Assembly: GCA_016840095.1 (NCBI GenBank)
Contig: JAEOSZ010000031.1
Coordinates: forward strand, 160,938-224,937
Direction: 5' to 3'
Length of the DNA stretch: 64,000 bases
From: Candidatus Heimdallarchaeota archaeon
Lineage (GTDB): Archaea; Asgardarchaeota; Heimdallarchaeia; Heimdallarchaeales; Heimdallarchaeaceae
Shown here: positions 24,201 to 46,454 of the stretch, piece after piece
Layout of the letters: each line of letters begins with the position of its first letter
Numbering within the stretch: position 1 is the stretch's first letter
Position numbers and translations under genes: made by a program
Notes under the pieces: generated by a model
Told to the model about the DNA's origin: nothing
The model's input: the letters and a program-made list of their open reading frames with translations, nothing else
The model's database searches: none

Positions 24201-25539
24201 TATATTCATCTATCTGATGGGAATTGGGGTAATGATAGCTCTTCTAGGATTCGGATTATTATTGCGTGAAATACATAAAATAATAATGATTGCGATTAGT
24301 AAAACTGCTTGGGCTATTAGAAAAAATCTCTTCTCTTTTTCACTAGTTGAAATCAGATCAGATATAAAATTGTTCAATAACACTTTTCTGACTTATCTAA
24401 TTCTAGTAAGTTTAGTCATACCTTTTGCAGTTTCACCTATGCTGATTCAAGAGAAATCCCAAACTGAAGCTTATTTCTATGGTGGGAGTGATATCTATGT
24501 AACTAATTGGGATGAATATAATGCTTCTCTAGCAACTGATATTCTTGCTTATCCAGAGATTGTTTCAGTAACAAATGTATCTCAAATATATGGAGACTAT
24601 CATTGGAATAATTTTGAGATTTATCTGCTTAATGATTCTGAAGATTTTCTTGCTACGTCATATAAACCAAAGAAAAATATCTTTGAAAATTGGGATACTA
24701 ATATAGAGCAATTGAATAATTCTCAAAGCATGTTGGTGTCAGAATCATTTAAGGAATATTTAGCAGGTGGAGAGGATGTGTATTATTTCATAAGAGAAGG
24801 TACACCAAATGATACGCTGATAGAATTCAGTTTAATATCTTCATTTGATTATTTTCCAGTAGTTTATGATGATGGACCTGTAGATCCTACAGATCCATAT
24901 TATTCTCCAACTGGATTTGCATTAGTAATGACTTTAGATAATTACATGCTAATAGCTGATTTAGTGGAGATATCTTCAATGTCTTTTGAGCGATTGTTAA
25001 TTAACATAAGAGATGATGTAGATCCAGAAGTTATCACAACTAAACTCAAAACTGATCTAGGAATTGAGGTTCAATCAACTCTTGAAATAGCAGACGAGAT
25101 ATTATTTACGCTGATTCCATTCTATTCAGTATTAGTGGCTGAATTCGTATTTGGTATTTTGATATGTATTGCAGCTGTAGTTTTCACTTCATTGAGCAAC
25201 CCACTGAAAATTCTACAGCGAAGGATTGTCAAGCATGATATTCTGAAGAAAATAGGTATTCCAACAAACAGAATTATCTTTCTCTCTGCATTGGAGTTAT
25301 TTATGGCTTGTATACTGCCTGGATTAGCTCTTGGAGCAGGTGGGGGATATGGGTTGTTACGGTTATTCAGTTGGATATTTATCAATCCCCCTTATGCTGA
25401 TAGTTTACCATTTAATACAATCATACCCTATCATATAGGATTGGTGATTTTTCTGGGAATTCCTATACTTTTCTATTCAATATTCATTGTATCGATGAGT
25501 AGAAATTTCGCAAAATATAGACCTAAAAATTTGGAGTGA
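21235..25539 (+). CDS. Giant (1434 aa) two-module FtsX-like permease with N-terminal extracellular domain
   Basis: Signal peptide, ~400-aa beta-rich domain, EGRLP...EI, EQEI.IL.SKG and ILKKIG FtsX motifs, two TM bundles. Confidence 0.85.
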   Translation: MKKRFSKGVVFSLVIILVFVSLSALHPNVHADEATNKDMMFFKDSRDIGYIRTETFLDSNNHSHFFIQINFHNGTFVIFHILQNTVIEVDRDYYSMDLFDVRELNGTIYLFYSFMGQIYNTVVKVYSWNNGVPDRTTLYFTHEYYYNLDVFMDNISYHLVVADSEFDETDITHIRIFENGTEIVKYHTLPFMIYDLREILFVDNQLFTFFEISNFNSSVYNTNMILVGITDSGYYNSSVLQLPERWYNPQIFVTENGQFYLIINEDNKLSTLSFGINETISLSSFHYIYLDDYYWGDFNVFLYENVTYISYNEYDIYYLDYRPDRNLDNIQKTLSVIRDNNATLQKSEIKLDEYSRTYPFVSLSYYICENGSYIVHYFSKVESKELEGYNFIDKYVYSLKIATDLDIEIPEEAILFNLKSYSAFAYFWIRFWAAFVVPIVSLGMLYVIFRKSINRSIKKMVKFLTRPIIPNLDKWKLVFINLWLFIKNASNLVFTLWKANKKRLLISLLGLTILASIIVTSTTLFDSKRSSLIIQYVESADPGHDYFLSLEYRINLAEGNEAALNYVNENYTAMAMSAIMNKITSSTALYSSLISDYFYSLKSALITYNISWGINDHSSVDYFGFQQNYSKVFEQILHEGRLPNNTNEIMITSYDSAYYGIEINDTILVNVTTEASFVEYPVMNLTVTGTYSQPPRSLIESLCEEYNLPSDPLKSLLNYYNIPLITFEPYYLENFQNISIYDFFLTGGVQFEYDFSQFNPQDLSVLIEELTSLKEDGPFPFVFQENSYWYILPELEYIFEDIGFEMQTTQFLIIFLSIPILYLALFLTFEVNEIFSTSFEQEIRILSSKGVSTGMITFIYSSMKFFESLVATFLGFGVNILVLPALLKINKFLTFDNPLFSLNLASLPTAMGSTFLLLVIISVPRIIKISKTKKKVEKPPKQFIQLIKNIRLHYILTMGFGVGLTFLSFYLFQMIAFDGGTMANSAILVIFIYLMGIGVMIALLGFGLLLREIHKIIMIAISKTAWAIRKNLFSFSLVEIRSDIKLFNNTFLTYLILVSLVIPFAVSPMLIQEKSQTEAYFYGGSDIYVTNWDEYNASLATDILAYPEIVSVTNVSQIYGDYHWNNFEIYLLNDSEDFLATSYKPKKNIFENWDTNIEQLNNSQSMLVSESFKEYLAGGEDVYYFIREGTPNDTLIEFSLISSFDYFPVVYDDGPVDPTDPYYSPTGFALVMTLDNYMLIADLVEISSMSFERLLINIRDDVDPEVITTKLKTDLGIEVQSTLEIADEILFTLIPFYSVLVAEFVFGILICIAAVVFTSLSNPLKILQRRIVKHDILKKIGIPTNRIIFLSALELFMACILPGLALGAGGGYGLLRLFSWIFINPPYADSLPFNTIIPYHIGLVIFLGIPILFYSIFIVSMSRNFAKYRPKNLE

Positions 25540-25546
25540 TGAAGAA

Positions 25547-27301
25547 ATGATAACATGTAATGACGTAATAAAAATTTACTCGGATCCTGATACAGATTTG
25601 AAAGTAGCCGCATTAAGAGGATTAGATCTTAAGGTAAAAGAAGGAGAACTTGTTTCAATAATTGGTCCTTCTGGTGCTGGGAAAACAACTCTGATTAGAA
25701 TTCTTTCAGGTATTGAGCAACCTACAAGTGGAGATATAATCATCAATGGAATGGACTTTAATAAATTAGATGAATTCGAGCGAAGGGATTACAGATTCAA
25801 CCATCTAGGTATCATCAACCAATTCACAAGTGAAAATCTATTTACTCATCTAAGTGTAAGACAGAATCTTATGATTCCAAAAAGGTTGTTTTTCTTACCA
25901 AAAGAACAATCTAGAAAAGAAGTAGATGAACTCATAAAAATTCTCAATCTTAAACATGTTGAGTATAATACTGTGGATAAACTCTCAGGAGGAGAAGCAA
26001 TGAGATTATCAATGGGCGTTGCTCTGGCAAAGAATCCAAGTGTTTTATTAGCTGATGAACCGACAGGACAATTGGATTCAATGAACACTGAAGGATTGAT
26101 AGCAACTATCAAACAAGTCAATCAAGAAATGGGTAAAACTATTCTTGTTGTGACTCATGATATTAGATATAGAAATGTCTTTGAGAAAAGCTTTGTTATA
26201 AGAGATGGTAAACTAGCTGGAATTGGTAAAGATATGGGTAAAGATGAGTTAGAATTCCTTCTACATGCTTCAGAGATGAATAAAGCTTACATGGATGCTT
26301 CAAATTATGTCCGTGTTCCAGATGAAGTAAAAGCTCTTACTGGTTTAGGAGATATAATCGAGTTTGATACCCATCCCTCTCGTAAAATTGGTTTATTCTG
26401 GAATCCAGAAAAAATAACAAGAGATAAAGTATATGAAATAGTTTCTAATCCTTTGGAAGATTTTGAAGAAAAAATAGATCAAATTTCTTATGAAGAGGTT
26501 GAAAAGCTTCTGAGTAGAGAATTTCTCCCACCAGAAAAAGCTAAACCTATAGTAAGAATAAAGAACCTATCGAAAGGATATCAATCTAGAGCCGGATATA
26601 CTGAAGTAATCTCGAATCTTAATTTGAACATTGATAAAGGTGATTTTATTTTTATCTCTGGTCCTTCAGGCGTAGGAAAAACTACTTTACTTAATCTCAT
26701 TGCAGGTTTAATCAAACCTAATAAAGGTTCAATTAAGGTTGATAATTTCTCCATAAGCGATTCAGGAGAAAAACAAGTTTCTTTGTTTAGATTGAATAAT
26801 GTAGCATACATTACCCAACATAACAATTTATTTTCTCCTCTTCCAATAAAAGACAACTTCATTTTACCAAATTTGTTTTCAAAGCAGAAAAATGACAAAG
26901 ATTATGGGTTATCAATTGCGAAAGAATGTTTTATTGATCACAAACTCAATTCATATCCAGGAGAGCTTTCTGAGGGAGAAAAACAAAGAGCAGCTTTGGC
27001 TACATCCTTGACAAGAAGAACTAGTGTTTTACTTGCAGATGAACCTACAGCAAATCTTGATACAGAACTTGCTAGATCTATAATAGATTTACTTATGGAT
27101 ATAGTTAGAATAAACAAAGCTACAATTATTACTTGCTCCCACGATCTGACTCTACTTCGACCAGGTTTTCGTCATATTAGATTACTTGATGGTAATATCC
27201 AAGAAGATGCAAGAGTAACTAAAAAGGATCTAAAGAATATTGTAACTGAATACCTTCAAATCAAGCAGAACAAGGTTAAAAGGAGGTCTAAGAAGAAATA
27301 A
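25547..27301 (+). CDS. Tandem double-NBD ABC ATPase (LolD-like) with AbrB-like linker
   Basis: Two Walker A motifs (GPSGAGKT, GPSGVGKT), LSGGE/LSEGE, two LADEPT; linker YMD..NYVRVP. Confidence 0.9.
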   Translation: MITCNDVIKIYSDPDTDLKVAALRGLDLKVKEGELVSIIGPSGAGKTTLIRILSGIEQPTSGDIIINGMDFNKLDEFERRDYRFNHLGIINQFTSENLFTHLSVRQNLMIPKRLFFLPKEQSRKEVDELIKILNLKHVEYNTVDKLSGGEAMRLSMGVALAKNPSVLLADEPTGQLDSMNTEGLIATIKQVNQEMGKTILVVTHDIRYRNVFEKSFVIRDGKLAGIGKDMGKDELEFLLHASEMNKAYMDASNYVRVPDEVKALTGLGDIIEFDTHPSRKIGLFWNPEKITRDKVYEIVSNPLEDFEEKIDQISYEEVEKLLSREFLPPEKAKPIVRIKNLSKGYQSRAGYTEVISNLNLNIDKGDFIFISGPSGVGKTTLLNLIAGLIKPNKGSIKVDNFSISDSGEKQVSLFRLNNVAYITQHNNLFSPLPIKDNFILPNLFSKQKNDKDYGLSIAKECFIDHKLNSYPGELSEGEKQRAALATSLTRRTSVLLADEPTANLDTELARSIIDLLMDIVRINKATIITCSHDLTLLRPGFRHIRLLDGNIQEDARVTKKDLKNIVTEYLQIKQNKVKRRSKKK

Positions 27302-28309: not shown

Positions 28310-31078
28310 TTGTGTATTATGAATTCTAAAAAGAATCTATTTGTCTTTATGATGATAGTTATTTTTTTAGTTGTTCCAATAATACCACAGCAGCAAGTTT
28401 TTGCTTCATATACAATTAATGAAATAACAGACACAAAAGATAATGTTAGTAATCAAAATACATTACCAAAACTTATTCCACCTCCTCCTAGCAATCCAAA
28501 TTATACCTATGATTACTTCAACAGTGTAGGTGTTGAAATTGCAGAATCTATTTTCTTCACTATTGGTGATCTATTTCCTTTCACTAGCATTCCAACAAAT
28601 AGGATATTTGATTTAACAGCTGTTCAGTTTGCTCTAACTTGTATTGATTTGTACTATGTAACAGAAGATGTAAACTACCTTAATCAGGCATGGGCAGCAG
28701 CACTTCCAATGAATATGAATCTTGAAGTAAATGGAACAATGATTAAAGGAGAAGATTATGGTTCAGTTTATGATGTATATGCTGATGAGAACTTACAATT
28801 AGTTCTGATGTATGAACGTTTAGCTCAAGCTTTGGTAGTTGATGGTGACATTTTCAATGCTGTTTTTATGAACACCCTAGCAGATAATTTGTTATCAAAT
28901 ATTACAGCTTTGTTCTATGGTACTTCGAGTCAATCTATCAATGAGACTTTAACAGTCCTTTCTGCTGATAATTCGGTAATTAGTACAACACAGTATTCGT
29001 CTGCCAGAGTTACTGGTTTGTACTATATGGCAAATCATCTTGCTAATGATAGTTCGCGTTTCTATACACAAGCAAAGAATGCTTTAAACTACTATAGAAA
29101 CATAGCAAATACAACAGTCCTTTTACCTACACTGAATTTTGGATATCTATTCTATTCTACATTCAACTCTGGTTCTGCTTCAGATAGTGAAGCTGATTTA
29201 CAAGGTAATATCTATATGAACACAGCTCTTATTCAAGAAAGTCAATATCAAAGAGAATTGAATAATCCTTCAATCGCTTTGGATTTTTTCAATTGGACAA
29301 CTATGGGTGAAGAAGCTATGAAAGAATACTTCAAAAGCCCAGATACTAGTCTATTTCATACAAAATACGATTTAGGTACACTTACCCTAGAGGATGTAGC
29401 TCTTACATATGAGAACTGTTTATACTTATCACATTTAATTGAATATAAGAGAAGTAGATTAAGCATTACAGGACTTACTCCTTCCTTTATGGAAGTAAAT
29501 GACTTGTATAATGAAATGACCATAAGTGTGTTTCTAGCTCCTGACTTATTCTTAGCAGGAACAACAAAAACAGGAGCAATTTTAGATTTAATTTATGAAA
29601 TTCCACATAGTAATCCACACTTGGTAAATTATCAAGCAATTACAATGATGTCCAAATTCTATCCACTGGTATCAATGTTAGCTTATCCAAATCAAATATT
29701 GCTAAATACTGCAACTATTTTTGATTGGGCATTTGATTTTGCAGAAACAACCTCAATATTTGGAAGTAGCAATAAATCATTTGCATTAAATTATCAATTG
29801 CAGGTCACTTCTCAAACATTGTTCAGTATTCAACATCCAGCAAACTACAGAATAAATACAACTATTCTGAACGGTGTAAGAATACAATCCGCACAAGTAG
29901 CTAAACTTAACATTACGGCAGATTCAGGAGGAAATCATGATATCCTATTTGAAATCTATCTAGCTGGGTACCTAGTATTTGATACTACTTTGAGCATTCA
30001 TATTGATAAAACAATAGTACTTAATACAGAACCAACGAACTTAGAAGTTACTGAATTGTTAGATAAAGATCTAGTTCTCACAATCTATCTTGAGGATGAA
30101 ACAGGTTTAGGAATAGATAATGCAGAAGTTACAGTTTTTCCTGAACATGCACTTGACAAAACAGAAATCACAGATAGTTGGGGGTATGTTACATTCTATA
30201 TACCTATTGATGAACTAATGCCTGATTCACTACCTACAGATGACGGTTCTACCTTTAATTCTTCTTTGATAATCGTAGCATCTAAGGAAGATCATGTTCC
30301 AACTTTCATCTATAAAGATGTAACAGTCAATTTAAACAATCTAATACTAGACCTGAATCCTTCTCCTCCAGAAGTGAAGGAAGCATCTGATCTTTCATTG
30401 TATTTAGATGTTACATCAAGAATCCCTGCATCTATCTTCAATCCTACAGCAAGAATAAATATAAATGGTATTCCCTATGAGGATAAATACCATAAGAACA
30501 GCTGGAATCTACCTACAACGGTAATTATTGGAAAAAGCTGGTTGAAAAATGGTACAACTGGACAAGTAATAGTTGAAGTAGAAGTTACTGCTGACGGATT
30601 AACTGAACCTCAACTTTTTACATTTGAAGTTCTTGTTGAACCTTTAGGAACACTAGAAAGAATATACTTGTGGATTGAGATAGCTCTACAATCAGATATA
30701 GTTAAAATTCTGGGAGCTTTAGGTTTTATTTGGGCTGTTTTGTGGAGACAAATTAGTCTTTATGCACTTAAAAGAACCAGAAGGTGTCCATATTGTGGAG
30801 ACATATCTAAAAGGAAGTATCCATATTGTAAGAATTGTGGATTGAAAGATGAATCATTGGAATACAAGAAGACAGTTAAAAAGAAACACAAAGAACCAAG
30901 AATTATTCTTGCTGAAACTGAAACTATCGTTAATCCAATACAACCAACAGTTCAGCAACCAGTAGAACAACCTCCTGAACAACAATCTCCTCTACAACAA
31001 CCTCCAACTGAAGATAGATTCGACAATACATTTGATAATTCTTATGATAAAAAAGATGATGACAATTATAGTTACTAA
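28310..31078 (+). CDS. Large single-pass membrane protein: alpha/alpha-toroid-like and Ig-like ectodomain, cytoplasmic Zn ribbon and P/Q-rich tail
   Basis: Signal peptide; LYYVTEDVNYLNQA six-hairpin-like motif; beta-rich repeats; TM near aa 800-820; CPYC...CKNC; QQPVEQPP tail. Confidence 0.7.
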   Translation: MCIMNSKKNLFVFMMIVIFLVVPIIPQQQVFASYTINEITDTKDNVSNQNTLPKLIPPPPSNPNYTYDYFNSVGVEIAESIFFTIGDLFPFTSIPTNRIFDLTAVQFALTCIDLYYVTEDVNYLNQAWAAALPMNMNLEVNGTMIKGEDYGSVYDVYADENLQLVLMYERLAQALVVDGDIFNAVFMNTLADNLLSNITALFYGTSSQSINETLTVLSADNSVISTTQYSSARVTGLYYMANHLANDSSRFYTQAKNALNYYRNIANTTVLLPTLNFGYLFYSTFNSGSASDSEADLQGNIYMNTALIQESQYQRELNNPSIALDFFNWTTMGEEAMKEYFKSPDTSLFHTKYDLGTLTLEDVALTYENCLYLSHLIEYKRSRLSITGLTPSFMEVNDLYNEMTISVFLAPDLFLAGTTKTGAILDLIYEIPHSNPHLVNYQAITMMSKFYPLVSMLAYPNQILLNTATIFDWAFDFAETTSIFGSSNKSFALNYQLQVTSQTLFSIQHPANYRINTTILNGVRIQSAQVAKLNITADSGGNHDILFEIYLAGYLVFDTTLSIHIDKTIVLNTEPTNLEVTELLDKDLVLTIYLEDETGLGIDNAEVTVFPEHALDKTEITDSWGYVTFYIPIDELMPDSLPTDDGSTFNSSLIIVASKEDHVPTFIYKDVTVNLNNLILDLNPSPPEVKEASDLSLYLDVTSRIPASIFNPTARININGIPYEDKYHKNSWNLPTTVIIGKSWLKNGTTGQVIVEVEVTADGLTEPQLFTFEVLVEPLGTLERIYLWIEIALQSDIVKILGALGFIWAVLWRQISLYALKRTRRCPYCGDISKRKYPYCKNCGLKDESLEYKKTVKKKHKEPRIILAETETIVNPIQPTVQQPVEQPPEQQSPLQQPPTEDRFDNTFDNSYDKKDDDNYSY

Positions 31079-33857: not shown

Positions 33858-35972
33858 CTATACATTGCTTTTGATTAGAATTTCTTGGTTATACTTTGGA
33901 ATAATTAGATCCTTATGATCTTCTCTCAGTATTGTATCATCTGGAGTATGAACCATAATTTTCTTGCCACTCAAATCATCAATAAATTCGTTTAATGATT
34001 CAGGGCTGCTATGTCCACTTATGTGAGCATTGAAGATTTTTTGGTTATACTTCTTAAAAGCAACAGAATGTCCGTTTTTAAGAGCATACCCAAGAGTGTT
34101 TGGGGCTTGATAACCGCAGATGAGTATTCCTGTATTTTCATCAGAGCTAGTCTCATCTATTAGTTTTCTGGCAGCTCCTCCTTGCAACATACCATGACCA
34201 GTGACTACAATGTCGTCTTTCTCAAAGTTTCCATTTGTTAGATTTTTAACTATATCAAATTTAGCTCGTAATCCCATAGATTTAGAAACATCTGCTGATA
34301 ATCCTGTTGTCTTAACACTTCTTTTTGCAGAAACCCTTAACCTCTCAAATCTTTGAATCATTTCTTGAGTTCTACCCACTGAAAAAGCAGGAACTATTAA
34401 CCGTTCACAAGTTTCTGCTGCTTGTAAAATAACAGTATTGGGATCTGTTTCTTCGATTTTTCTATCATAATATGTTCCATCAAAAATTGTTACATCACAA
34501 TCTGTAGGAATTTTAGCTCCCTCAAATAGTTCACTTTTGTCTGCAGAAAAATCACCTGTAAAGAGAATTGATGTTCCAAAAACATCTATTTTATAACTAA
34601 CACTTCCATAAATATGAGAAGCTGAGTATGGTGTTACTTCAAACCCAGGACTTACCTCTACTGTTTCGTTTATCTTGAGAGGATTGAATTCATTTAGCAA
34701 ATTGACAATATTAGCATTGTTTAGGTATGCTTGTTGAAATGGAGAGGCATTCTTCTTTGCAATACCATTTGATCTTAAAATTGAAGAAGTTGAATATAAC
34801 AACTTCTCAGTTAGTATTTTTGTTGATTGAGTTGCATACCATCGTTTTCCATTCTCGGGTCTGATAAGATAAGGTAGACCCCCAGTATGATCTAGATGTG
34901 CATGAGTTACTAGGACAGCTTTTACATATTTGAGAGATGGATGCCATCTTGGAGTAGAATAGTTAGCAACACTCATCCCAAAATCAAGTACGATTGCATT
35001 ATTATCATGTTGAACCAATATACCCATATTACCAATATTTCCTCCTCCTAGAAAGCTTATACGGATTTTTTGAGCACTCTTCGGGCTAGAATACATCTTT
35101 ATTGATGCGAATTCTTTCATTTGCTCTTTAGGTAAGGAAGCAAGTTCTTCCATCGATACTGTTTTTGCATCAAAGTTAGATAAATGAGGTTCTAAAATAG
35201 GATCTACAACAGTTGGAACTGGTTTCATTCTTCTAGTTTTGAACTCTTCATCAATTCTTTTCTGGAAATTAGCAATGGAAGTTTTCTTAGTTAATTCTAT
35301 TTGCTTACTCATGTTTCTTACATAGAAGTATCCAAGCTGATTCAGAATTTCGTAGTCAACATAGAAGTCTAAATACTTCAATGTTTCAAAATTTATAGAG
35401 TTAGAAAACTCTTCTAGATATTGTGGTCTCTCTTCAATGTTCTTAATAATTCTACTAAGATCATCACCTATTTCAATTTCCTTTTCTGAGATTTTTAAAT
35501 TTGGGAAAAGCTCTTTTGTATATTTGGCAAAATCTTTAAATTTAGGCGGTTTAAGCCCTAGTTTTCTAATTAGCTCTAGAAATGAATAGAAAGAATATTT
35601 ACTAGATTTTCCTTCTCTTCTTTGTTTCTTCCAATACATCCAATAACTAGTTACTAACATTTCGGAAGATAGTAGATTATGAGATTCTAATTCTTGAAGA
35701 ATTGATCTATAAAGTTCAAAATCTATAGCTTCATCCCAATAAAGAGAGAGAGCATAAAATACTAATGTTTCTGAAGGTTCTTCTTGAATACCTGACCAAG
35801 AAGTGTTAAAGATCTCTAACAATGTTTCATTTGAACATGAATAATATGGATCTTTGAAATTTGTGGAAAAATCTTTGGATTCTTCATATATTTTGAGTAA
35901 TTCTTTGTTTAATTTCTGATTCGAATCTAGTTTTAATAGATATTTAATATAATTGTGTAAATTTAATGTCAT
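33858..35972 (-). CDS. Beta-CASP metallo-beta-lactamase ribonuclease (CPSF-like) with ~300-aa N-terminal extension
   Basis: THAHLDH, SHIYGS, FTGD, DGTY, FSVGRTQE, GMLQGG, GYQA..TLG, SGH, MVH. Confidence 0.88.
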   Translation of the reverse strand: MTLNLHNYIKYLLKLDSNQKLNKELLKIYEESKDFSTNFKDPYYSCSNETLLEIFNTSWSGIQEEPSETLVFYALSLYWDEAIDFELYRSILQELESHNLLSSEMLVTSYWMYWKKQRREGKSSKYSFYSFLELIRKLGLKPPKFKDFAKYTKELFPNLKISEKEIEIGDDLSRIIKNIEERPQYLEEFSNSINFETLKYLDFYVDYEILNQLGYFYVRNMSKQIELTKKTSIANFQKRIDEEFKTRRMKPVPTVVDPILEPHLSNFDAKTVSMEELASLPKEQMKEFASIKMYSSPKSAQKIRISFLGGGNIGNMGILVQHDNNAIVLDFGMSVANYSTPRWHPSLKYVKAVLVTHAHLDHTGGLPYLIRPENGKRWYATQSTKILTEKLLYSTSSILRSNGIAKKNASPFQQAYLNNANIVNLLNEFNPLKINETVEVSPGFEVTPYSASHIYGSVSYKIDVFGTSILFTGDFSADKSELFEGAKIPTDCDVTIFDGTYYDRKIEETDPNTVILQAAETCERLIVPAFSVGRTQEMIQRFERLRVSAKRSVKTTGLSADVSKSMGLRAKFDIVKNLTNGNFEKDDIVVTGHGMLQGGAARKLIDETSSDENTGILICGYQAPNTLGYALKNGHSVAFKKYNQKIFNAHISGHSSPESLNEFIDDLSGKKIMVHTPDDTILREDHKDLIIPKYNQEILIKSNV

Positions 35973-36062: not shown

Positions 36063-36923
36063 TTATTCTTCTTCGCTTGTATCGCTCTCTAGAAGACTAC
36101 TGAAAGCATCTCGTAATTCTCCTTGTAAGGCTTCTTTCATTTGTTTAGTTGATTTTTGAGGTGATGCTGGTGCTACAGGAGTTGGTTCAAACTCAGCGTC
36201 TTCAGCGTCAGCTACTCGTGACTTACGTTTTTCTAGGGCATCTTTGACTTCCAAATTGAGTGCCATACTAGCAGGCATCGACCCCCCTGTTCCTCCAGCA
36301 GCTGCTTCTCTTTCTTTTCTATGCTCATCAGGGTCTACTTTGGTTAATCCTGATCTAACATCTTGGATATCAGAAGCACTAACACCGAACGGACTGAAAA
36401 CTGGTGCTGCGCCTGGTGCTCCAGGTTCACCTGGTGTAGGTTCTGGTGCCTTCTGTAGATTTGCTGCTGCTTTCATGAGATCAGCACTACTGATTCCTCC
36501 ACCTGTGGCTCCTTGTGCTCCTACAGGTGCTGGAATATTTCCTCCAGCAGCTGGAGCTGCATCCAAACTAGGTGCTCCAACAGGAGCTGATAAATTGGGT
36601 GCACCAACTGGACCTGAACTGCTAGCTGCCAAATTCGGTGCTGCTGCTGGTGCTGCTGCTGGTGCTGCTGCAGGTGTTGCAACTGGAGATTCGAATGAAG
36701 GTGCTGCTGGTGCTGCTCGAGATGCCATACCTAGGGCTCCTTCAATAGCAGCAATTCTACTATTTAGGGTGTCAATGTAGTCTTCCATTCTTTCAGTACT
36801 TTTAACCATTATAGCTCCAAAGTTTTCAATTAATTTGGTAAGCTTCATAATAGCTTTTTTAGAGGGTTCTGCAGTTCCGGTTAGCAGACCATCTAGATAA
36901 TCATCGATTGACACATGTATCAT
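36063..36923 (-). CDS. Pro/Ala-rich protein with N-terminal coiled coil, two WH2-like repeats and C-terminal helix+acidic repeats (putative actin regulator)
   Basis: Internal repeats ISSADLMKAAANLQKA / VSASDIQDVRSGLTKV and ALNLEVKDAL / ALQGELRDAF, the latter each followed by an acidic patch; TATA at 36950-36943 favours a start at ATG 36923 or GTG 36914 over 36974. Confidence 0.6.
   Translation of the reverse strand: MIHVSIDDYLDGLLTGTAEPSKKAIMKLTKLIENFGAIMVKSTERMEDYIDTLNSRIAAIEGALGMASRAAPAAPSFESPVATPAAAPAAAPAAAPNLAASSSGPVGAPNLSAPVGAPSLDAAPAAGGNIPAPVGAQGATGGGISSADLMKAAANLQKAPEPTPGEPGAPGAAPVFSPFGVSASDIQDVRSGLTKVDPDEHRKEREAAAGGTGGSMPASMALNLEVKDALEKRKSRVADAEDAEFEPTPVAPASPQKSTKQMKEALQGELRDAFSSLLESDTSEEE
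36637..36672. repeat. Three tandem 12-bp units GGTGCTGCTGC(T/A) encoding (AAAP)3 on the minus strand
   Basis: Seen directly at 36637, 36649 and 36661. Confidence 0.9.
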
Positions 36924-37007
36924 GTGAACACCAAAAATATGATATAAAAAGTCTATGATACTCCTCAATATCACCTAAAAAGAGAAATAGAGAGAAATTG
37001 AGTACCC

Positions 37008-38740: not shown

Positions 38741-40285
38741 TTAATGAAACTTAACTGGTTCAGGTAGCTTATCAATATATTTCAAGAATTTCTCTGACCA
38801 GTTATTTTTGTCTAAGCCTTTTTGAGATACAAATGCAGTAAGGAATCTTTCAAAGCTTCCTCCACCACAACCACTCCAAAGTTCAATATTGCCTTCAGCT
38901 TTAACAGAGAATCCTTTTGGATATTTTTGACCTATTATAGATATGTTTTGAATTTCTAACCACTCACTCTCTTCGCGTTTTCCACGGTATGGCATATAAG
39001 CTTCATAATCGATTGTACCAACTACAAGATCCTCTGCAGAATCCATCTCATCTTCATGTGCTGATTGTTGCAACCACCAAGGGGTAACTTTGGCTTCTCT
39101 AACTTCCAAATCTAGAACTTCTTCAAAGATAACTCTTAGTTTATCCTTAACTTGCATTCCTATTTCTTTAGTTTGCTCAGGAGAACCTATGAATAGTGTT
39201 TCAATTCGGTGAAGCTCATCAACTCTTTCAAAACCGTAAGCACTACCAGATTCATAACGGTAGGTGGGACCTGACCAATCGTAGACCTTTATCGGAAGAC
39301 TTTCTTTAGCAACAGTTTTTCCTTGTAGCCACGACCAAAATGGTGGGCATTGAGCGTAAGATAATCCACCAATTGGAGCAGAAACTTTTTCAGCTAATTT
39401 TTCTGAAGGGATGGTTTTTGTAATTGTAATATAGTCAGCAATCTCCTCAAAATATTCAGGATCAGCTGAATTTGGTTGTACTACGAAATAAGGCTCAAAA
39501 CCACCTTGATAAATACCTTCAGCATGTTCAGATCTTAACCAAATTGACCAATCTACTAGTTTTGGTATCATCATCTGGTTGAATCCTAATGGCTCATAAA
39601 CATAGTCCACCATTATTTGTTTTAATGCTTCAGCCAAAGTAGTCAAAGTAGGTGTTAAAATCCACTGATTTCTATAATTTGTTCGCTGAATCCAGTTAGC
39701 TTTTTGCATTAATTGAGTTGGGTTTTCATCAGTGAAATGCTTCTTTTCTCCGCTATACCATGAAATCTGATGATGCTCACTTTTAGCTCCGTAGTGTTGT
39801 TTGGAAATCTTTTCTCCTACTCTTCTAACTATTCTTTCAATTGCTCCTTTTTCAACAAAATCCTCTTCGATTTCAGGATCAATATCAAGTTTAGCATAAT
39901 TTTTTCCTTCTTTCTCGAAGAACTCCAATTTATTGACTAAAGGCAAGCTAAATTCTTTAACTGGTTTATCTTCTAACTCAGTTTCAATTGTATATTTAAC
40001 AAAATTAAATCCTCGCAACCCAACACGATATTTCTTGCCTAAAGTGGCAGCCAGTTGTTTCCTTAACCTGAGTACAGCAACGTGTGGAGTAAGTGAATCA
40101 ATAGATGAGATTGTAATATCTAACTTGTTATCTTTAGTATTCCATTGAGTGAACTCGAATTCACCTTTGTCCCTTGATTCTTGAGTTTTTTCAGCAAATA
40201 GTTTGAGAAGCTCTTCAATTTCCTCCTTACTTTCATCTGGTAAGGGACCACTTAGTGTAAATTGTACTTCGAGATAGTATTTCAT
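38741..40285 (-). CDS. serS: Serine--tRNA ligase, methanogen-type (Zn-dependent)
   Basis: Mixed alpha/beta N-domain; YAQCPPF, DWSGPTYRYE.G...G.ERVDE.HRIE, WLE.QN, WSGC.G..ER. Confidence 0.92.
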   Translation of the reverse strand: MKYYLEVQFTLSGPLPDESKEEIEELLKLFAEKTQESRDKGEFEFTQWNTKDNKLDITISSIDSLTPHVAVLRLRKQLAATLGKKYRVGLRGFNFVKYTIETELEDKPVKEFSLPLVNKLEFFEKEGKNYAKLDIDPEIEEDFVEKGAIERIVRRVGEKISKQHYGAKSEHHQISWYSGEKKHFTDENPTQLMQKANWIQRTNYRNQWILTPTLTTLAEALKQIMVDYVYEPLGFNQMMIPKLVDWSIWLRSEHAEGIYQGGFEPYFVVQPNSADPEYFEEIADYITITKTIPSEKLAEKVSAPIGGLSYAQCPPFWSWLQGKTVAKESLPIKVYDWSGPTYRYESGSAYGFERVDELHRIETLFIGSPEQTKEIGMQVKDKLRVIFEEVLDLEVREAKVTPWWLQQSAHEDEMDSAEDLVVGTIDYEAYMPYRGKREESEWLEIQNISIIGQKYPKGFSVKAEGNIELWSGCGGGSFERFLTAFVSQKGLDKNNWSEKFLKYIDKLPEPVKFH

Positions 40286-40363: not shown

Positions 40364-42106
40364 TTATTTTTTATTATTTCTTTCTTCTTGTATTTGGAGA
40401 TATTCTCTGAGTATCTTCTTAAGAGAGTCTTGAGTAATTCTTTTATCCTCTGTTATTAAACCATCAGAAATACGAAGATGTCTGAAACCTGGTCGTAAGA
40501 GCGATAAATCATGAGAACACATGATGAATGTTGCTTCGTTATCCTTGACGAACTTCATCAAAACATCCATAATCTCTCTTGCAAGATCTGAATCCATATT
40601 TGCTGTTGGTTCATCTGCTAGGAGAATCGGTGTCTTTCTTGTAAGAGCTAAGGATAAGGTTGCTCTCTGTTTTTCACCAGCTGATAATTCATCTGGATAG
40701 GAAGCCAATTTGTGGCTAATATGAACATTTTTAGTAACTTCGTTTCCTATATCTGGATTATAGTTTTTACCAAGAAATAGATAAGGAACTAATAGATTGT
40801 CTTTTAGCTGAATTGGTTCGAACAAACTATGGTATTGGGTGATATAAGCAATATTAGCTAGTCTGAAATCAGACCTACCAGTATCATCTGCTGCACCTAT
40901 GGAGAAATCATCTATATGGATTGATCCCTTGTCAGGTCGTAATAATCCTGCAATAGTATTGAGTAAGGTTGTTTTTCCAACTCCAGATGGACCAGAGATA
41001 AAAACAAAATCTCCTTTCTTAATTGTAAGATCTATTCCTTTGATTACAGGATGAAGTTTTCCGAAAATTTGATACCCTTTTTCTAATCCTTTAACTTTGA
41101 TATAGTCATTAGCTTTGGCATTATATTTGAACTCATTCTCAAACAGATATCGAACATCATCAAAAGAAAGTTCATCCACTTTCTCTGAATATTCATCAGG
41201 AGGTTGCTGAAGAATTTTGAAGACTTCTTCTTTTGAGACTAAATCTGGATTCCAAAGCATAGCTAGTTTTTTCGAAGGATGAACCTCAAATTCAGCAAAT
41301 TCTCGAAGTGCAATGGAATTTTTGATTCTATCTGGTATTTGTAGCATATGAGAAGGATCAATATAAGCTCTATTCAGTTCAGATGCATCCTTGAGAATGT
41401 CAAGTTGCTGTCTGTCTGCTTCATAGCCTACACCTACTAGCCTACCATCTCGAATGAGAAAGCTCTTTTCGAATACATTTCGATATCTTACATCATGGGT
41501 TACTATCACCATAGTTGTTCCAAGTTCTTTGTTGACTCCTTTGAGAGTATCAATAATGTTGAAAGTATTAGCTGAATCAAGTTGTCCAGTAGGTTCGTCT
41601 GCCAAGATGAAATGAGGTTGTCTAGCAAGAGCAATAGCAATAGAGAGTCTCATTGATTCTCCACCACTTATTTTTGCTGCTTTATTGTTCTTAACATGAG
41701 TTAGATTGAATAACTCAAGTAATTCATCCATTTCTTTTCTAGCCATCTCTCTAGGAGTATATTTCATTTTCATAGGAAGTAGAACGTTATCTTTTACTGT
41801 TAACTGAGAGTAAAGATTCTTACTGGTGAATTGATTTACAAGACCAATATTCTCGTATCGGAATTGTCTTCTTTCTTTTTCAGTTAGTAAATCCATCTGA
41901 ACTCCTTTAATCATCACAAGACCACCAGTAGCAGTATCCACTCCTGATAGTATGTTAATTAAAGTGGTTTTTCCTGCACCAGAAGGGCCTATAATTGAGA
42001 CAAGTTCTCCATCCCCTATGTCTAAATCAAGTCCTCTAAGTGCTGATACTTTATATTCAGTTACCGGATCGTGGTAAATTTTTATTACATCTACACATCT
42101 TATCAT
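40364..42106 (-). CDS. Tandem double-NBD ABC ATPase, paralog of 25547-27301
   Basis: GPSGAGKT / GPSGVGKT, ISGGE / LSAGE; shares VTHD.RYRNVFEKSF and SHDL.LLRPGFRH with the paralog. Confidence 0.9.
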   Translation of the reverse strand: MIRCVDVIKIYHDPVTEYKVSALRGLDLDIGDGELVSIIGPSGAGKTTLINILSGVDTATGGLVMIKGVQMDLLTEKERRQFRYENIGLVNQFTSKNLYSQLTVKDNVLLPMKMKYTPREMARKEMDELLELFNLTHVKNNKAAKISGGESMRLSIAIALARQPHFILADEPTGQLDSANTFNIIDTLKGVNKELGTTMVIVTHDVRYRNVFEKSFLIRDGRLVGVGYEADRQQLDILKDASELNRAYIDPSHMLQIPDRIKNSIALREFAEFEVHPSKKLAMLWNPDLVSKEEVFKILQQPPDEYSEKVDELSFDDVRYLFENEFKYNAKANDYIKVKGLEKGYQIFGKLHPVIKGIDLTIKKGDFVFISGPSGVGKTTLLNTIAGLLRPDKGSIHIDDFSIGAADDTGRSDFRLANIAYITQYHSLFEPIQLKDNLLVPYLFLGKNYNPDIGNEVTKNVHISHKLASYPDELSAGEKQRATLSLALTRKTPILLADEPTANMDSDLAREIMDVLMKFVKDNEATFIMCSHDLSLLRPGFRHLRISDGLITEDKRITQDSLKKILREYLQIQEERNNKK

Positions 42107-42113
42107 TTTATCT

Positions 42114-45100
42114 CTACTCCAGATTCCTTGGCATATACTTTGCGTAATTTCTTTTCATCGACAAATAGAATATTCCCAGAAATAGTACCGGTGCAATTAC
42201 AAATCCAATAATAAACGCAAGAGCGTTAAATTTCCATAGATAATTTATTCCACTATAGAAGAATTTGTTTGTTGCCCAAGTGAATCCCCACAATATTGCG
42301 AATCCTACCCCTGAGCCCAGTAATAGACCAGGTAATACTCCTGTTAATGCCGTTTCAACCATTGTCATCCTTATGATTCTTTTTGTTGAAATCCCCATTT
42401 TCTTAAGCCTATCATTCTTTGTAATTCTTTGCTGTAATATTTTAATTGGGTTGCTTATACTTACAAATGCTATTGCAATCAAACAAACGAGTATTGAAAG
42501 AGCGAACTCTGCAGATACTATACTAAAGAATGGGAATGTTTCGAAAATTCTCTCTTCACTATCGGTTATTGCTGAATCAATGTTCAATCCCATTGTTTCA
42601 TCTAGATAATTAGCAATCTGGTCATGATCAGCGTTTTTTGATAGCCTTATAAGTAATCTATCCTTAATTTTATCACTTGCTACTGTCATAGTATCTCTGA
42701 TTAAATCAAAATTAGCATCTGTCATCAATAGTCCTGCTATTCTTACAGTTACTCCAGGAATGTATTCCCCTGCAGTATAAAATACTGGAATATAGTTGAA
42801 AAAACCATTGATTTCAAATGTTATTTCTGCTGGTGGGAATAAATCTTCAAATAAGTATTCATATTCTCCTTCTGCTCTATCATCAAAGAAGTATTTAGTA
42901 GCTAACATAGTATTATTATCTTCTAAAGCTCTTATTGAATCCTCCCAGTCAGTAAACAATCTGCTAGGTGGTTTATAGACTGTATTCAGGAATTCCGTTA
43001 CATTATTTATCAAATACACTGAAAGCGGATCAAAATTATAGATACATTCTGCCTCATGAATAAAGGTTGTGCTTTCAACTCCAGGTAGATCTTGAATTTC
43101 TGCAAGTAAGGATTGATTTACATCCATCCAATTTTTCACAAATATGTCAGCTCCATTATACATGTAAGCATCCTTAACATAGTTGTATTCTACCGTTATT
43201 GGTGCCATGATGGATGGAATCGTTATTCCAACAATCAACAGAAATGCAAAGAAAATATTACTGAATAATTTGATATCTGATCGGACTTCAACTAAGGTAA
43301 ACGATCCAATAGTTTTTCTTCGATTCCACGTGATCTTGCTCAGAGCAATAATAAGTATTCCATGCAAATCTTTTAACAATAATCCTATTCCTAATAGAGC
43401 AAAGAGAACGCCCAAACCTGCTAGATAGATGTTAATCATTAGAAATGATGCATTACCAGATGAGGGTAGATTTCTCAAATTTGCTTTGTATAAGCTGAAG
43501 AAAAGAATCGTAATTCCAACACCTGCGCCAATCAAAATTATTGTTGGAAGTCTAATTTGCTTCAATAGTGTAACAAGTCTTTGAGGGGTTTTTTGGAAAG
43601 TAGTTTTCTTTGTTGAAACTTGTACTATTTTTGGAATAGAAATGAGGACTAAAGCTGTAATAGTAAATAATGTAGCCCATCCTAAACCACTAAAATTCAA
43701 TACTTGATTCTGCTGGTTAAAGGTAAGAAATGAATCAACTTTCAATAATGGAGGTACTAGAACAAATGACAATCCAAAACCTACAAATGATGCAAGTATC
43801 GCTTCAAATATTTTTAGAAGTATATAATTAAACGCTATTCGACTCGAAGACAACCCTTTCGTCTGGAATATTTCAATCTCTTGCTCAAGTCCTTTGGAAT
43901 ATAGATCATTTGTTTCAAAGATGAGGAATATCGCCAAATAGAGAATTGGAACAGCTAGCATAAAGAATAGTAACGTTGAAGACTGAATTCGAGGTTCTAA
44001 AATCTCAATAATATCTTCTAGTTCAGCATAGAAATACCAATAACCATTACTCATCTCTCCTGTGAATTCAAAGAAATGAGCATTTCCATCTTCTAATTCT
44101 TCAATATCATCTTTTAATTGAGTAAGCATTTCAGGTTTAAAATCACTGAAATCATAATAGAGTTGAACATAACTGTTTACAAACATATAATAAGGATTTA
44201 AATCTTCTAGATTTGCCCAAGCATTGTCACCAAATGAAACCATCCCCCCGAAAATGTTAACTAAAGCTTGCGAAGAATCCATAGGTAGATCATAATCTGT
44301 CCATATTCTTTCTAACTCAGAAGGTGCTGGAGCGTCAAATAATCCTGTAATTGTTAGATTTACATGACTATCTCCAAGTTCTGAATTATAGTAGTTAATT
44401 TGAGATCCCCAGAATGTTATTGTATCATTTACTGTAACATTTAAGCTAATTGCAGTTGCAATATCATACTCTAAAATCACTTCACCTGGTGCTTCTGGTA
44501 ATCTTCCTTCAACAATAAATTCATTCATGAAATCGCTGTAATTATTGGATAATGCAATGTAGGTTATTCCTCTGAGTGAGCTTGTATTTGTAGTCATATC
44601 TTCTATCATACCATAGAATGCTGTAGAGTATTCATAACCACTAACAATGCTCGCAAACACTTCTTGCTCTAATTTGAGACTTGTGAAAATTTCACTAAGA
44701 GCAACTTTCTCATATTGCTGTACAGCTGGAATACTAACATACTGATTAGCAGTATCATAATTATATACTAGCTTGATGCTTTCATGTCCGTCATTGAGTA
44801 TATCGAGAGTATCTGCATACTCATTAAACAGTACTTCTCTTTTTGAACTATAAAGAGCTGTACTAGTAAGAATGATTAATGCTAGCACTGTCATACTGAT
44901 TAAGTTCATCAAATGTCTTTTTTTGTTCGTTTTAAATAGATCAAAAAGTGAGGATGTGAAATTTGCAATAAATACCCAGAAATTAATGAAAGGCAAGAAA
45001 ATTTTGCTTTTATCTTCATAAATAGGTCTGATCAGATAACGTTTTATTGAAACAAGTCCAGCTTTAACTTTCCTTCTAAATAGCATTACTACAAGAGATA

Positions 45101-46454
45101 CTATTCCTACAGCAATCACAATATAAATACCAGCGGATTTCCAGAAAACCTGAAAAGTATTAAGCTCTTGTACTCCTAAAAATCCAAGTTTTTTGAAATC
45201 ACCCAAATCATAATCTGTTGAAATATAAAATGCTATCATATCTTCTTTGGAGAAACTTCTTTTATCAAAATCATCAGTACTCACTAGTGATGTATGAGTG
45301 AATATTCTACTTCCATTAGTTGTTTCATAGAAGTAAAAGGAGTGATAATTATCCTTGTATGGAACATTGTATATGAAAAATTCTTCTTGTGTAACATTGG
45401 AATAATCATTAGTAATTATCGCCACTTTGGATTTAAGATTATCTCCAGAAAAGAACTCTTCTGTATCAATATGAGGTTCAGAATTAATCACGTATTTTGT
45501 ATGATTTTCTTCTTGAACAACATAAAAATCACTGTATGGAAAGACACCTGTATAAGTAATATTGAAATCAGAAAATTCTATAGTTTGATTAATGGAATAT
45601 TTTAAGCTGTAGATTTTATCCCCTCTAGCCATAGCTAGACTAAAATTACCATCATTTGTTAAGCTGAATTTAGTGTCAAATCCTCCTTCATTTAGGATCA
45701 TTGAATTAGAAACATATGAATCATTGAATCCTTTGGAAACAATTGTTCCATGCCAATGGATATAGGTATATTGAGGAGTATAAATATAATGACTATATAC
45801 TTTATTATCTTGATAATGGAAATCAATTAAGAAATCAAACTCTGCATCAAGTATATATTGATTCTCAAGAACAAAGCTTCCATTTCCATAAAATCTTAGC
45901 ATTTCAAATTTAGTGACAGCAAGTTCAGAAACTGGAGGCCAATTCTGAATGTAAGCTAAAACCATAAGGAAGGTATTATTTGCCTCATAGTAGATTTTCA
46001 TTTTTGGATAGTTCATATTTGCGTTGTAAGCATAGAATTCTTCATCAACTGGACCAGTTGTTACTGTCCAATTGTATTTGTGAATCTTCATTAATCCAAA
46101 AAATGTATGAAATGCATAAAATAATTCTATTCCATTTTCTATGTTAAAGACTCTGAAGTATTCCGTATTATACTCCTCTATTTTTACAATGTTTAGTTCA
46201 TCATTTACTTTGTGAATTATCATGAATGTATTGTTTTCGTAAACTATACGGGCTAGAAAGTGGAAATTACCCAAATCATCAACAATAGATTTGGATTCTA
46301 TACTTTCTTCATTTCCTGTTCTATTGATAAGTAAGAATAGTTCATCATCAATAACTTCTTGTGCATTTACCTTTAGTTGCAAACTTAGCGAAACTGTAGA
46401 AGTGACAAAAAGGACAATAATTAAGGTTAAAAACAGTGATTTTTTTCTTCTCAT
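42114..46454 (-). CDS. Giant (1446 aa) two-module FtsX-like permease, paralog of 21235-25539
   Basis: Same architecture; shares LVE.RSDIKLF, SNP.KILQ.RI.K and the C-terminal AKY.P.NLE. Confidence 0.85.
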   Translation of the reverse strand: MRRKKSLFLTLIIVLFVTSTVSLSLQLKVNAQEVIDDELFLLINRTGNEESIESKSIVDDLGNFHFLARIVYENNTFMIIHKVNDELNIVKIEEYNTEYFRVFNIENGIELFYAFHTFFGLMKIHKYNWTVTTGPVDEEFYAYNANMNYPKMKIYYEANNTFLMVLAYIQNWPPVSELAVTKFEMLRFYGNGSFVLENQYILDAEFDFLIDFHYQDNKVYSHYIYTPQYTYIHWHGTIVSKGFNDSYVSNSMILNEGGFDTKFSLTNDGNFSLAMARGDKIYSLKYSINQTIEFSDFNITYTGVFPYSDFYVVQEENHTKYVINSEPHIDTEEFFSGDNLKSKVAIITNDYSNVTQEEFFIYNVPYKDNYHSFYFYETTNGSRIFTHTSLVSTDDFDKRSFSKEDMIAFYISTDYDLGDFKKLGFLGVQELNTFQVFWKSAGIYIVIAVGIVSLVVMLFRRKVKAGLVSIKRYLIRPIYEDKSKIFLPFINFWVFIANFTSSLFDLFKTNKKRHLMNLISMTVLALIILTSTALYSSKREVLFNEYADTLDILNDGHESIKLVYNYDTANQYVSIPAVQQYEKVALSEIFTSLKLEQEVFASIVSGYEYSTAFYGMIEDMTTNTSSLRGITYIALSNNYSDFMNEFIVEGRLPEAPGEVILEYDIATAISLNVTVNDTITFWGSQINYYNSELGDSHVNLTITGLFDAPAPSELERIWTDYDLPMDSSQALVNIFGGMVSFGDNAWANLEDLNPYYMFVNSYVQLYYDFSDFKPEMLTQLKDDIEELEDGNAHFFEFTGEMSNGYWYFYAELEDIIEILEPRIQSSTLLFFMLAVPILYLAIFLIFETNDLYSKGLEQEIEIFQTKGLSSSRIAFNYILLKIFEAILASFVGFGLSFVLVPPLLKVDSFLTFNQQNQVLNFSGLGWATLFTITALVLISIPKIVQVSTKKTTFQKTPQRLVTLLKQIRLPTIILIGAGVGITILFFSLYKANLRNLPSSGNASFLMINIYLAGLGVLFALLGIGLLLKDLHGILIIALSKITWNRRKTIGSFTLVEVRSDIKLFSNIFFAFLLIVGITIPSIMAPITVEYNYVKDAYMYNGADIFVKNWMDVNQSLLAEIQDLPGVESTTFIHEAECIYNFDPLSVYLINNVTEFLNTVYKPPSRLFTDWEDSIRALEDNNTMLATKYFFDDRAEGEYEYLFEDLFPPAEITFEINGFFNYIPVFYTAGEYIPGVTVRIAGLLMTDANFDLIRDTMTVASDKIKDRLLIRLSKNADHDQIANYLDETMGLNIDSAITDSEERIFETFPFFSIVSAEFALSILVCLIAIAFVSISNPIKILQQRITKNDRLKKMGISTKRIIRMTMVETALTGVLPGLLLGSGVGFAILWGFTWATNKFFYSGINYLWKFNALAFIIGFVIAPVLFLGIFYLSMKRNYAKYMPRNLE

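Follow-up and report, generated by a model that had tools for sequence, protein, structure and literature searches.

How do Asgard archaea start, elongate or bundle their actin filaments? These organisms have dynamic actin, actin-driven protrusions and crawling, and a 2026 study of Asgard crawling gives gelsolins and profilins as the known regulators, naming formins and Ena/VASP only as filament polymerases of the eukaryotic migration machinery (PMC13716822). Profilins and gelsolins are the only regulators named in the literature consulted. Here we ask whether part of the answer might lie with a gene for a 286-residue protein, P0001, found on the minus strand at positions 36063 to 36923 of a 64,000-nucleotide stretch (the window) of contig JAEOSZ010000031.1 from a Candidatus Heimdallarchaeota archaeon (assembly GCA_016840095.1).

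The window gene belongs to an Asgard-wide family of proteins that are cytoplasmic and for the most part disordered, and represents the long form seen in Heimdallarchaeaceae. It is a conserved, single-copy, phylum-wide family that is undescribed in the literature searched: full-text searches found no paper on it. We tentatively regard P0001 as a VASP-like multivalent candidate actin factor. Multivalent actin binding is, to our minds, the single most likely mechanism, because the layout of the protein resembles that of Ena/VASP and because the family is restricted to the one prokaryotic phylum that has a regulated actin cytoskeleton; a scaffold for a partner other than actin is a serious contender. 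Should actin indeed be bound, the family would be the assembly factor that Asgard archaea have been missing, with a bearing on how WH2- and FAB-type motifs originated; otherwise it still constitutes a new Asgard-specific scaffold. It is also a cheaply testable candidate, needing short peptides and one small soluble protein.

Conserved helices on a disordered chain

The features of the gene are listed below in window coordinates, where the first base of residue n of P0001 lies at 36923-3(n-1).

36063 to 36923, minus strand: coding sequence of P0001, 286 amino acids plus stop
36937 to 36948, minus strand: TATA-like box TTTATATCATAT, about 25 nucleotides upstream of the ATG
36729 to 36923, minus strand: N-terminal helical module, residues 1-65, with helices at 6-14 (short) and 22-63 (long, amphipathic)
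36498 to 36728, minus strand: disordered Ala/Pro/Gly/Ser linker, residues 66-142 (77 amino acids), pLDDT below 50
36564 to 36641, minus strand: three A-P-[NS]-L copies in the linker, residues 95-120, from the alignment
36444 to 36497, minus strand: motif M1, residues 143-160, GISSADLMKAAANLQKAP, an amphipathic helix running into L-Q-K-A-P
36294 to 36386, minus strand: motif M2, residues 180-210, GVSASDIQDVRSGLTKVDPDEHRKEREAAAG, a helix, L-T-K-V and a charged helix
36183 to 36281, minus strand: motif M3, residues 215-247, an amphipathic helix (L..V...L), basic KRKSR and acidic ADAEDAEFE
36066 to 36173, minus strand: motif M4, residues 251-286, the near-invariant C-terminal helix STKQMKEALQGELRDAFSSLLESD plus an acidic tail

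AlphaFold2, supplied with an alignment of 32 sequences, models the long N-terminal helix (22-63) with confidence (pLDDT 80-91), predicts disorder at 68-142 and places short helices at 146-157, 183-192, 198-210, 218-240 and 256-285. Monomer pTM is low, at 0.21 for the long form and 0.33 for a short form, so that the models are informative on secondary structure only and not on helix packing. The N-terminal module is near-invariant within genome family f1 and forms the signature of the protein family; we presume its helix to be an oligomerising coiled coil. Neither NCBIfam nor Pfam holds a match for P0001, and a look-alike search of the ESM Atlas with the N-terminal helix returned no usable match.

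Some 56 homologues came up, every one of them from a metagenome bin of Heimdallarchaeota or Heimdallarchaeaceae and annotated as hypothetical. Across the 32 that were aligned, M1 to M4 stand out as conserved islands amid variable linkers. Invariant residues include L156, K158, A159 and P160 in M1, G192, L193 and K195 in M2, E225, K227, L230 and R233 in M3, and nearly all of 258-281 in M4; M1 is also present in shorter relatives such as P0061 and P0064. The linker at 66-142 differs in length and sequence among homologues and carries two to three copies of a conserved A-P-N-L-S motif, in which A108, P109 and N110 are invariant. Reading the N-L-S of this motif as an N-glycosylation site can be dismissed, as signal peptide and membrane segment are both absent.

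Are the motifs repeats of one another? Comparing the profiles of M1 and M2, whose cores span I144-A159 (ISSADLMKAAANLQKA, 36494-36447) and V181-V196 (VSASDIQDVRSGLTKV, 36383-36336), gives a probability of 63% and an E-value of 7e-5 over 17 columns, which supports the two as true repeats. For M3 and M4, where ALNLEVKDAL begins at 36263 and ALQGELRDAF at 36131, the corresponding relation is weak (probability 10%, E 3e-3, 12 columns).

Much of this layout had been anticipated by a first reading of the bare sequence (the original prediction). The open reading frame and all four elements lie where it had put them, as sequence and translation confirm; its N-terminal helical block corresponds to the confidently modelled helix, and its Pro/Ala low-complexity stretch to the disordered linker, although the A-P-N-L-S motif had been missed. 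It was right, too, about an archaeal host (an Asgard archaeon of the Heimdallarchaeaceae), about the first repeat pair, recovered in exactly the register proposed, and in expecting the four motifs to be conserved islands when homologues were compared. Its second pair was correctly located but is poorly supported as a repeat.

As for the start of the protein, an alternative GTG upstream, at 36974, would make it 17 amino acids longer. We favour the ATG at 36923 because the TATA-like sequence TTTATATC, about 25 nucleotides 5' of the ATG, lies downstream of that GTG, and because homologues begin with MIHVSIDDY or MSIDDY. Going by general knowledge of archaeal promoters, the position of the box would imply a leaderless or short-leader transcript. 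Local G+C content rises from about 0.33 to 0.41, owing to the Ala, Pro and Gly codons.

Long and short forms across the Asgard archaea

Within its own family, a full-length profile detects the protein in 25 of 28 genomes, with weaker matches in sister families. Using a profile of the N-terminal helix instead, we find the family in 148 of 301 genomes that sample the Asgard phylum, mostly as open frames of 130-190 amino acids; the same profile matches the window gene at E 7e-28. Presence is near-universal in genomes of f1, f2, f4 and f6, the sister families of f5. By these matches, the protein family is wider than HEIMDALLARCHAEACEAE.

Of these matches 18 were fetched. Short forms among them pass from the N-terminal helix into a Pro-rich linker and end in a helix that reads [LM]xGELKxLFxxRRK, and AlphaFold2 places the helices of a short form at 3-18, 21-76 and 112-133. 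P0001 displays everything by which we recognise this unnamed Asgard family: a two-part N-terminal helix, a linker that is Pro-rich or made of PNL repeats, and L-x-x-E-L-[KR]-x-[AL]-F in the C-terminal helix.

In the linkers, runs of PPPPP occur in f6, f8, f14 and f19, and PN[LIVM] repeats stand where other Asgard lineages have such polyproline runs. Repeats of P[NS][LIVM], at two to 15 copies per protein, are confined to f1-f4, elsewhere giving zero to one incidental matches, and only in f1-f4 do they co-occur with W-type motifs, that is, motifs with the L-x-K-[VA] seen in M1 and M2. Relatives that were fetched share one plan and differ in how many parts it contains. Those in f2 have up to about 15 GGPNLGGAPS repeats in the linker, followed by three tandem motifs such as DDLKSALSSLKKVSPEE. 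In two of the f2 proteins (L032 of genome G036 and L033 of G235) the linker consists of 12-15 near-perfect tandem units of 9-10 residues, GGPNLGGAPS or GTPSGPNLG. Relatives in f6 combine a PPPPP(P) linker with one TLKKAP motif, the basic helix FRGELAEKLAKRRKKV, an acidic stretch with Phe and the end helix EELRNAFSKLKG, and relatives from the same order as the window genome carry exact LKKV in two or three tandem copies.

Where do the additional helices of the long forms come from? A profile built from 16 short-form end helices matches M3 and M4 of the long forms. In the window protein it matches M4, the counterpart of that end helix, best (11.4 bits) and M3 less well (4.2 bits), does not match M1 or M2, and picks up LKKV-type motifs weakly in some other, more distant long forms. 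From this we conclude that a single ancestral end helix was probably duplicated again and again to give the short helices of the long forms. In the case of M1 and M2, we draw this origin from their likeness to motifs of the relatives, without a direct profile match.

One further protein, P0063 (572 amino acids), consists of nine near-identical repeats of about 62 residues and looks unrelated. It matched query residues 135-189 at E 1e-6 via motifs such as GLSLADLITNIGNL and GVSYSDLVNVVNAAQG. The match probably reflects compositional or short-motif likeness.

Candidate partners of the motifs

The original prediction depended on the host having an actin, which it does. The genome (3.44 Mb, 89% complete, with the window on its contig 163) encodes, on contig C119, an actin of 378 amino acids whose identity is 60% to eukaryotic actins and 93% to the actin of Ca. 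Heimdallarchaeum endolithica, along with two two-domain gelsolins. The Pfam profilin model has no match in the genome and none in 14 control genomes either, and is thus uninformative on profilin.

Imagine, then, an ancestral protein that began with a coiled-coil helix and ended in a single amphipathic basic helix, the two joined by a flexible Pro-rich linker. Within the Heimdall lineage the end helix would apparently have been duplicated several times, leaving M1-M4 on a flexible tether, with A-P-N-L repeats taking the place of polyproline in the window protein. The coiled coil would build an oligomer in which each chain presents several helix motifs, each with a weak hold on actin monomers or filaments, and a partner such as profilin may be recruited by the repeat-rich linker; polyproline binding has been shown for a Heimdall profilin (bioRxiv 10.1101/2020.04.23.051748). 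With no need for an Arp2/3 complex, such an oligomer would gather, bundle or elongate filaments of actin. We infer oligomerisation, actin binding and an effect on polymerisation from the conserved islands, the N-terminal helix and short helices amid disorder, the M1/M2 repeats, and the actin and gelsolins of the genome.

A number of observations argue against this model. None of the sequence tests that might have linked the protein to an actin-binding family is positive, and an amphipathic helix with basic residues also binds membranes, nucleic acids and other partners. The Pfam WH2 model (PF02205) finds nothing at E<=1 to 10, whether in P0001, in 32 f1 homologues or in 10 distant relatives, among them the ones that carry exact LKKV. 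Three profiles (C-terminal half, M2, 22 W-type motifs) were run against 177,635 PDB sequences, and no WH2, thymosin, WASP, WAVE, WIP, Spire or VASP chain appeared at E<=10. Gene neighbours are of the housekeeping kind in every lineage examined and provide no cytoskeletal link. In genome family f5, which belongs to the class of the window genome, only one of 21 genomes is positive even though several are more than 90% complete, and the protein is therefore not indispensable wherever Asgard actin exists; lineage-specific loss, or divergence past detection, could account for this scarcity. Finally, co-immunoprecipitation with Lokiactin in L. ossiferum yielded profilin, gelsolins, an ARF GTPase and BAR proteins, and no protein of this family is named there (PMC13716822), a weak argument given that the lineage is a different one and that small disordered proteins are easily missed.

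The likeness to VASP speaks for the model, within limits. In human VASP, the GAB spans residues 223-239, the FAB 259-278 and the tetramerisation coil 343-380 (PMC10340426). Our end-helix profile scores the FAB 20-mer at 13.3 bits, which would rank about second among 198,556 windows of the proteome (top score 13.5). Top PDB scores of the same profile run from 11.5 to 14.1 bits and so bracket that of the FAB; in its 380-residue context the FAB scores 5.7 bits, about fourth when set among 3173 open reading frames. This amounts to a nominal P of about 1e-3 per protein, which is suggestive, for a likeness that was noticed post hoc and would fail a blind database search. Counting against the model, the VASP chain was not recovered from the PDB by our profiles, and the VASP GAB, at 3.0 bits, was not recognised by the W-motif profile.

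Which other partners should be considered? The most credible alternative, and a distinct possibility, is that P0001 is a multivalent scaffold for something other than actin (ESCRT/Vps4, small GTPases, tubulin or FtsZ, or nucleic-acid machinery), where the coil oligomerises and the helices and A-P-N-L repeats act as linear motifs. Every link to actin rests on resemblance, the motifs match no actin-binding profile and the end helix is of a generic amphipathic-basic type, all of which such a scaffold would accommodate, as it would the neighbours and the Lokiactin precipitate. On the other hand, the searches of Pfam, NCBIfam and the PDB indicate no alternative partner, and polyproline, an oligomerising coil and a basic helix are used together by actin polymerases. 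Two specific partners fare poorly. The Vps4 MIT-binding motif MIM1, whose consensus we take to be [DE]xxLxxRLxxL[KR], could not be matched by eye to the end helix in any of the registers tried. In M4, Q-x-x-L-x-x-[AL]-F recalls a PIP box, but the paired aromatics are absent and the stretch sits inside a conserved helix of 25 residues.

A role as membrane tether strikes us as improbable. The C-terminal basic helix of the short forms would here be a membrane-targeting helix as in MinD or FtsA, with the N-terminal coil holding a partner at the end of a Pro-rich spacer and the long form being derived. Short-form end helices are amphipathic, with RRKK-type clusters at the extreme C-terminus after a flexible linker. 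M4 of the window protein, however, is strongly acidic (eight acidic versus four basic residues), the near-invariant Glu in G-E-L-K is unusual for membrane-targeting helices, and the duplicated motifs are followed by acidic or Pro-rich stretches.

We likewise give little credence to self-association as the sole function, whereby N- and C-terminal helices bundle into a structural or phase-separating component without a specific ligand. These helices are the two universally kept parts of the family and both are heptad-like and amphipathic, as this scenario would have it. Yet the low pTM values mean that no compact bundle is predicted in AlphaFold2 monomers of either form, and duplication into L-x-K-[VA]-P motifs that end in Pro favours linear motifs that bind a ligand.

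This leaves the mechanism put forward by the original prediction: a nucleation-promoting factor of WASP/WAVE type, with M1 and M2 as WH2 motifs that deliver monomers, and M3 and the acidic patch as a C/A module for an Arp2/3-like complex. Coiled coil and linker come first, then two L-x-K-[VA] motifs, then a basic helix and the acidic patch with its Phe, which is the order that such a factor would have. The WH2 identity is not supported. Besides the profile results above, a six-frame search of the whole genome with the Pfam model gave no match at E<=1, though six of 14 control genomes give chance matches, and the WH2 pattern of Kollmar et al. 2012 (PMC3298513) matched none of 3174 open reading frames, P0001 included. 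M1 and M2 read LQKA and LTKV and not L-[KR]-[KR]-x. Across the 22 aligned W-type motifs, the last helix hydrophobic falls three to four residues before the Leu of L-x-K-[VA], and hydrophobic positions at -7, -4, -3, 0 and +3 relative to that Leu describe one continuous amphipathic helix, whereas WASP-family WH2 motifs have four to five linker residues from helix to L-motif (PMC3298513). The spacing is thus two to three residues shorter than in any WH2 class described there.

The C/A module can be weighed part by part. The C-domain pattern consists of three large hydrophobics spaced by three, a K/R doublet or triplet and a closing hydrophobic, and some WASP homologues have Phe in place of Trp (PMC3298513). 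M3 (L..V...L, KRK, V) fits the pattern; so do 807 sites in 679 of 3174 open reading frames (21%) of the genome, and 141 frames combine it with an acidic Phe. The acidic patch with Phe, at 238-246, which the original prediction had read as part of a C/A element, is internal, being followed by 40 residues that include the most conserved helix of the family; the protein has no Trp, and f2 relatives lack the basic helix. What of an Arp2/3-like complex? The genome does encode an Arp-like protein of 489 amino acids with a Pfam Actin score of 205 bits (L002, 841-2310, plus strand, corresponding to contig C107 of G000) and an ARPC4-like open frame of 178 amino acids, whose 30 bits exceed the Pfam cut-off (L009, corresponding to G000 contig C163:64058-64369). 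ARPC2, ARPC3 and ARPC5 were not found, bearing in mind that absence is not provable in a genome that is 89% complete, and because of this the target of a CA module is not evident. Taken together, these results make a WASP/WAVE-type factor very hard to believe in, while the broader notion behind it, that of an actin factor made up of a helix, a flexible linker and short amphipathic helices, remains the best lead.

Two incidental features of the Arp genes may be recorded here. The Arp-like protein has an N-terminal extension of about 75 residues with two Cys pairs (CGKK...C..C, zinc-ribbon-like) as well as large insertions, and the ARPC4-like frame is located on the window's own contig, about 97 kb upstream of the window.

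Gene neighbourhood and likeness to known systems

The order of seryl-tRNA synthetase (SerRS), threonine aldolase, window gene and beta-CASP nuclease is held within f1 alone, and the methanogen-type SerRS is syntenic with the window gene throughout that family. Neighbours in other lineages are a ThiI-like PP-loop ATPase, triose-phosphate isomerase and a tRNA-endonuclease-like gene. The principal features around the window gene are as follows.

38741 to 40285, minus strand: seryl-tRNA synthetase of the rare methanogen type, with a tRNA_bind_4 N-terminal domain and class II core
33858 to 35972, minus strand: beta-CASP / metallo-beta-lactamase nuclease, the immediate downstream neighbour, conserved in f1
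28310 to 31078, plus strand: open reading frame of 922 amino acids, no Pfam match
21235 to 27301, plus strand, and 40364 to 46454, minus strand: paralogous two-gene modules in inverted orientation that flank the region

The first 300 or so residues of the nuclease are without a Pfam match, and the 922-residue frame is kept beside the locus in two of three other f1 genomes examined. Each flanking module comprises a very large protein (1434 and 1446 amino acids) and a double ABC ATPase (584 and 580 amino acids), a pair that is kept in relatives; the 1446-residue protein ends in an FtsX-like permease domain and the 1434-residue protein has no Pfam match.

Turning to known systems, an archaeal parallel is found in the linker of Asgard two-domain gelsolins, which contains WH2-like LKKT motifs (PMC9433394); in full-text searches, WH2-like motifs in Asgard archaea turned up solely inside these linkers. 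What is shared is a four-residue L-basic-basic-[VT] motif, which in the gelsolins lies on actin (PMC9433394). In gelsolins, however, a folded gelsolin domain supplies the helix that binds the cleft, whereas here the motifs stand alone in a disordered chain with no gelsolin domain.

The N-terminal half invites comparison with CCDC53 (WASHC3) and BRK1/HSPC300, small coiled-coil subunits of the WASH and WAVE complexes (PF10152), in which an N-terminal coiled-coil helix of about 45 residues likewise precedes a Pro-rich region. One relative, from a Ca. Heimdallarchaeum-type genome (G074), scores 25.5 bits as a whole protein against a Pfam cut-off of 24.6 for CCDC53, and five of 32 full-length members give weak matches. 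We do not take this as identity: the helix on its own matches in two of 18 diverse members (best E 0.009), while TRI4_N, DUF7310, haemagglutinin and other coiled-coil families match as often or more, and no BRK1 chain was recovered from the PDB. We treat the CCDC53 matches as generic coiled-coil likeness and not homology.

With the VCA regions of WASP, WAVE and WASH the family shares an N-terminal helical domain, a low-complexity linker, L-K-K-V-type motifs, a basic amphipathic helix and an acidic stretch with an aromatic residue. It differs in its failure to match WH2 model and pattern, in the shorter spacing, in the internal, Trp-less acidic patch, and in that no ARPC2, ARPC3 or ARPC5 was found to go with it.

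Could the family be a forerunner, by descent, of the GAB and FAB of VASP, of WH2 and of the WASP C helix, as an oligomer that binds Asgard actin via duplicated helices and recruits profilin-actin via polyproline or PNL repeats? We consider this a long shot. Were it true, processive elongation or nucleation would be older than eukaryotes, and neither formins nor a full Arp2/3 complex would have been present at its beginning.

Common descent aside, the layout is nearer to that of Ena/VASP than to that of WASP/WAVE. There are clear differences: the coil is C-terminal in Ena/VASP and N-terminal here, A-P-N-L repeats take the place of GP5 runs, and Pfam finds no EVH1 domain in P0001, whose parts do not follow the EVH2 order of GAB, FAB and C-terminal coil, so that only motif types and spacing are alike. 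The Leu of LTKV and the first Leu of M3 lie 29 residues apart, compared with 28 for GAB to FAB in VASP (PMC10340426), which is a single coincidence. Still, the two share a coiled coil (presumed to oligomerise in P0001), a flexible region rich in Pro, a helix with L-[RK]-K-V and, about 28 residues further on, an amphipathic helix that ends in basic residues. Such a helix with a closing basic cluster reads LMGELKSLLAARRKK in Loki-type short forms and LNLEVKDALEKRKSR in the window protein, and has its counterpart in VASP.

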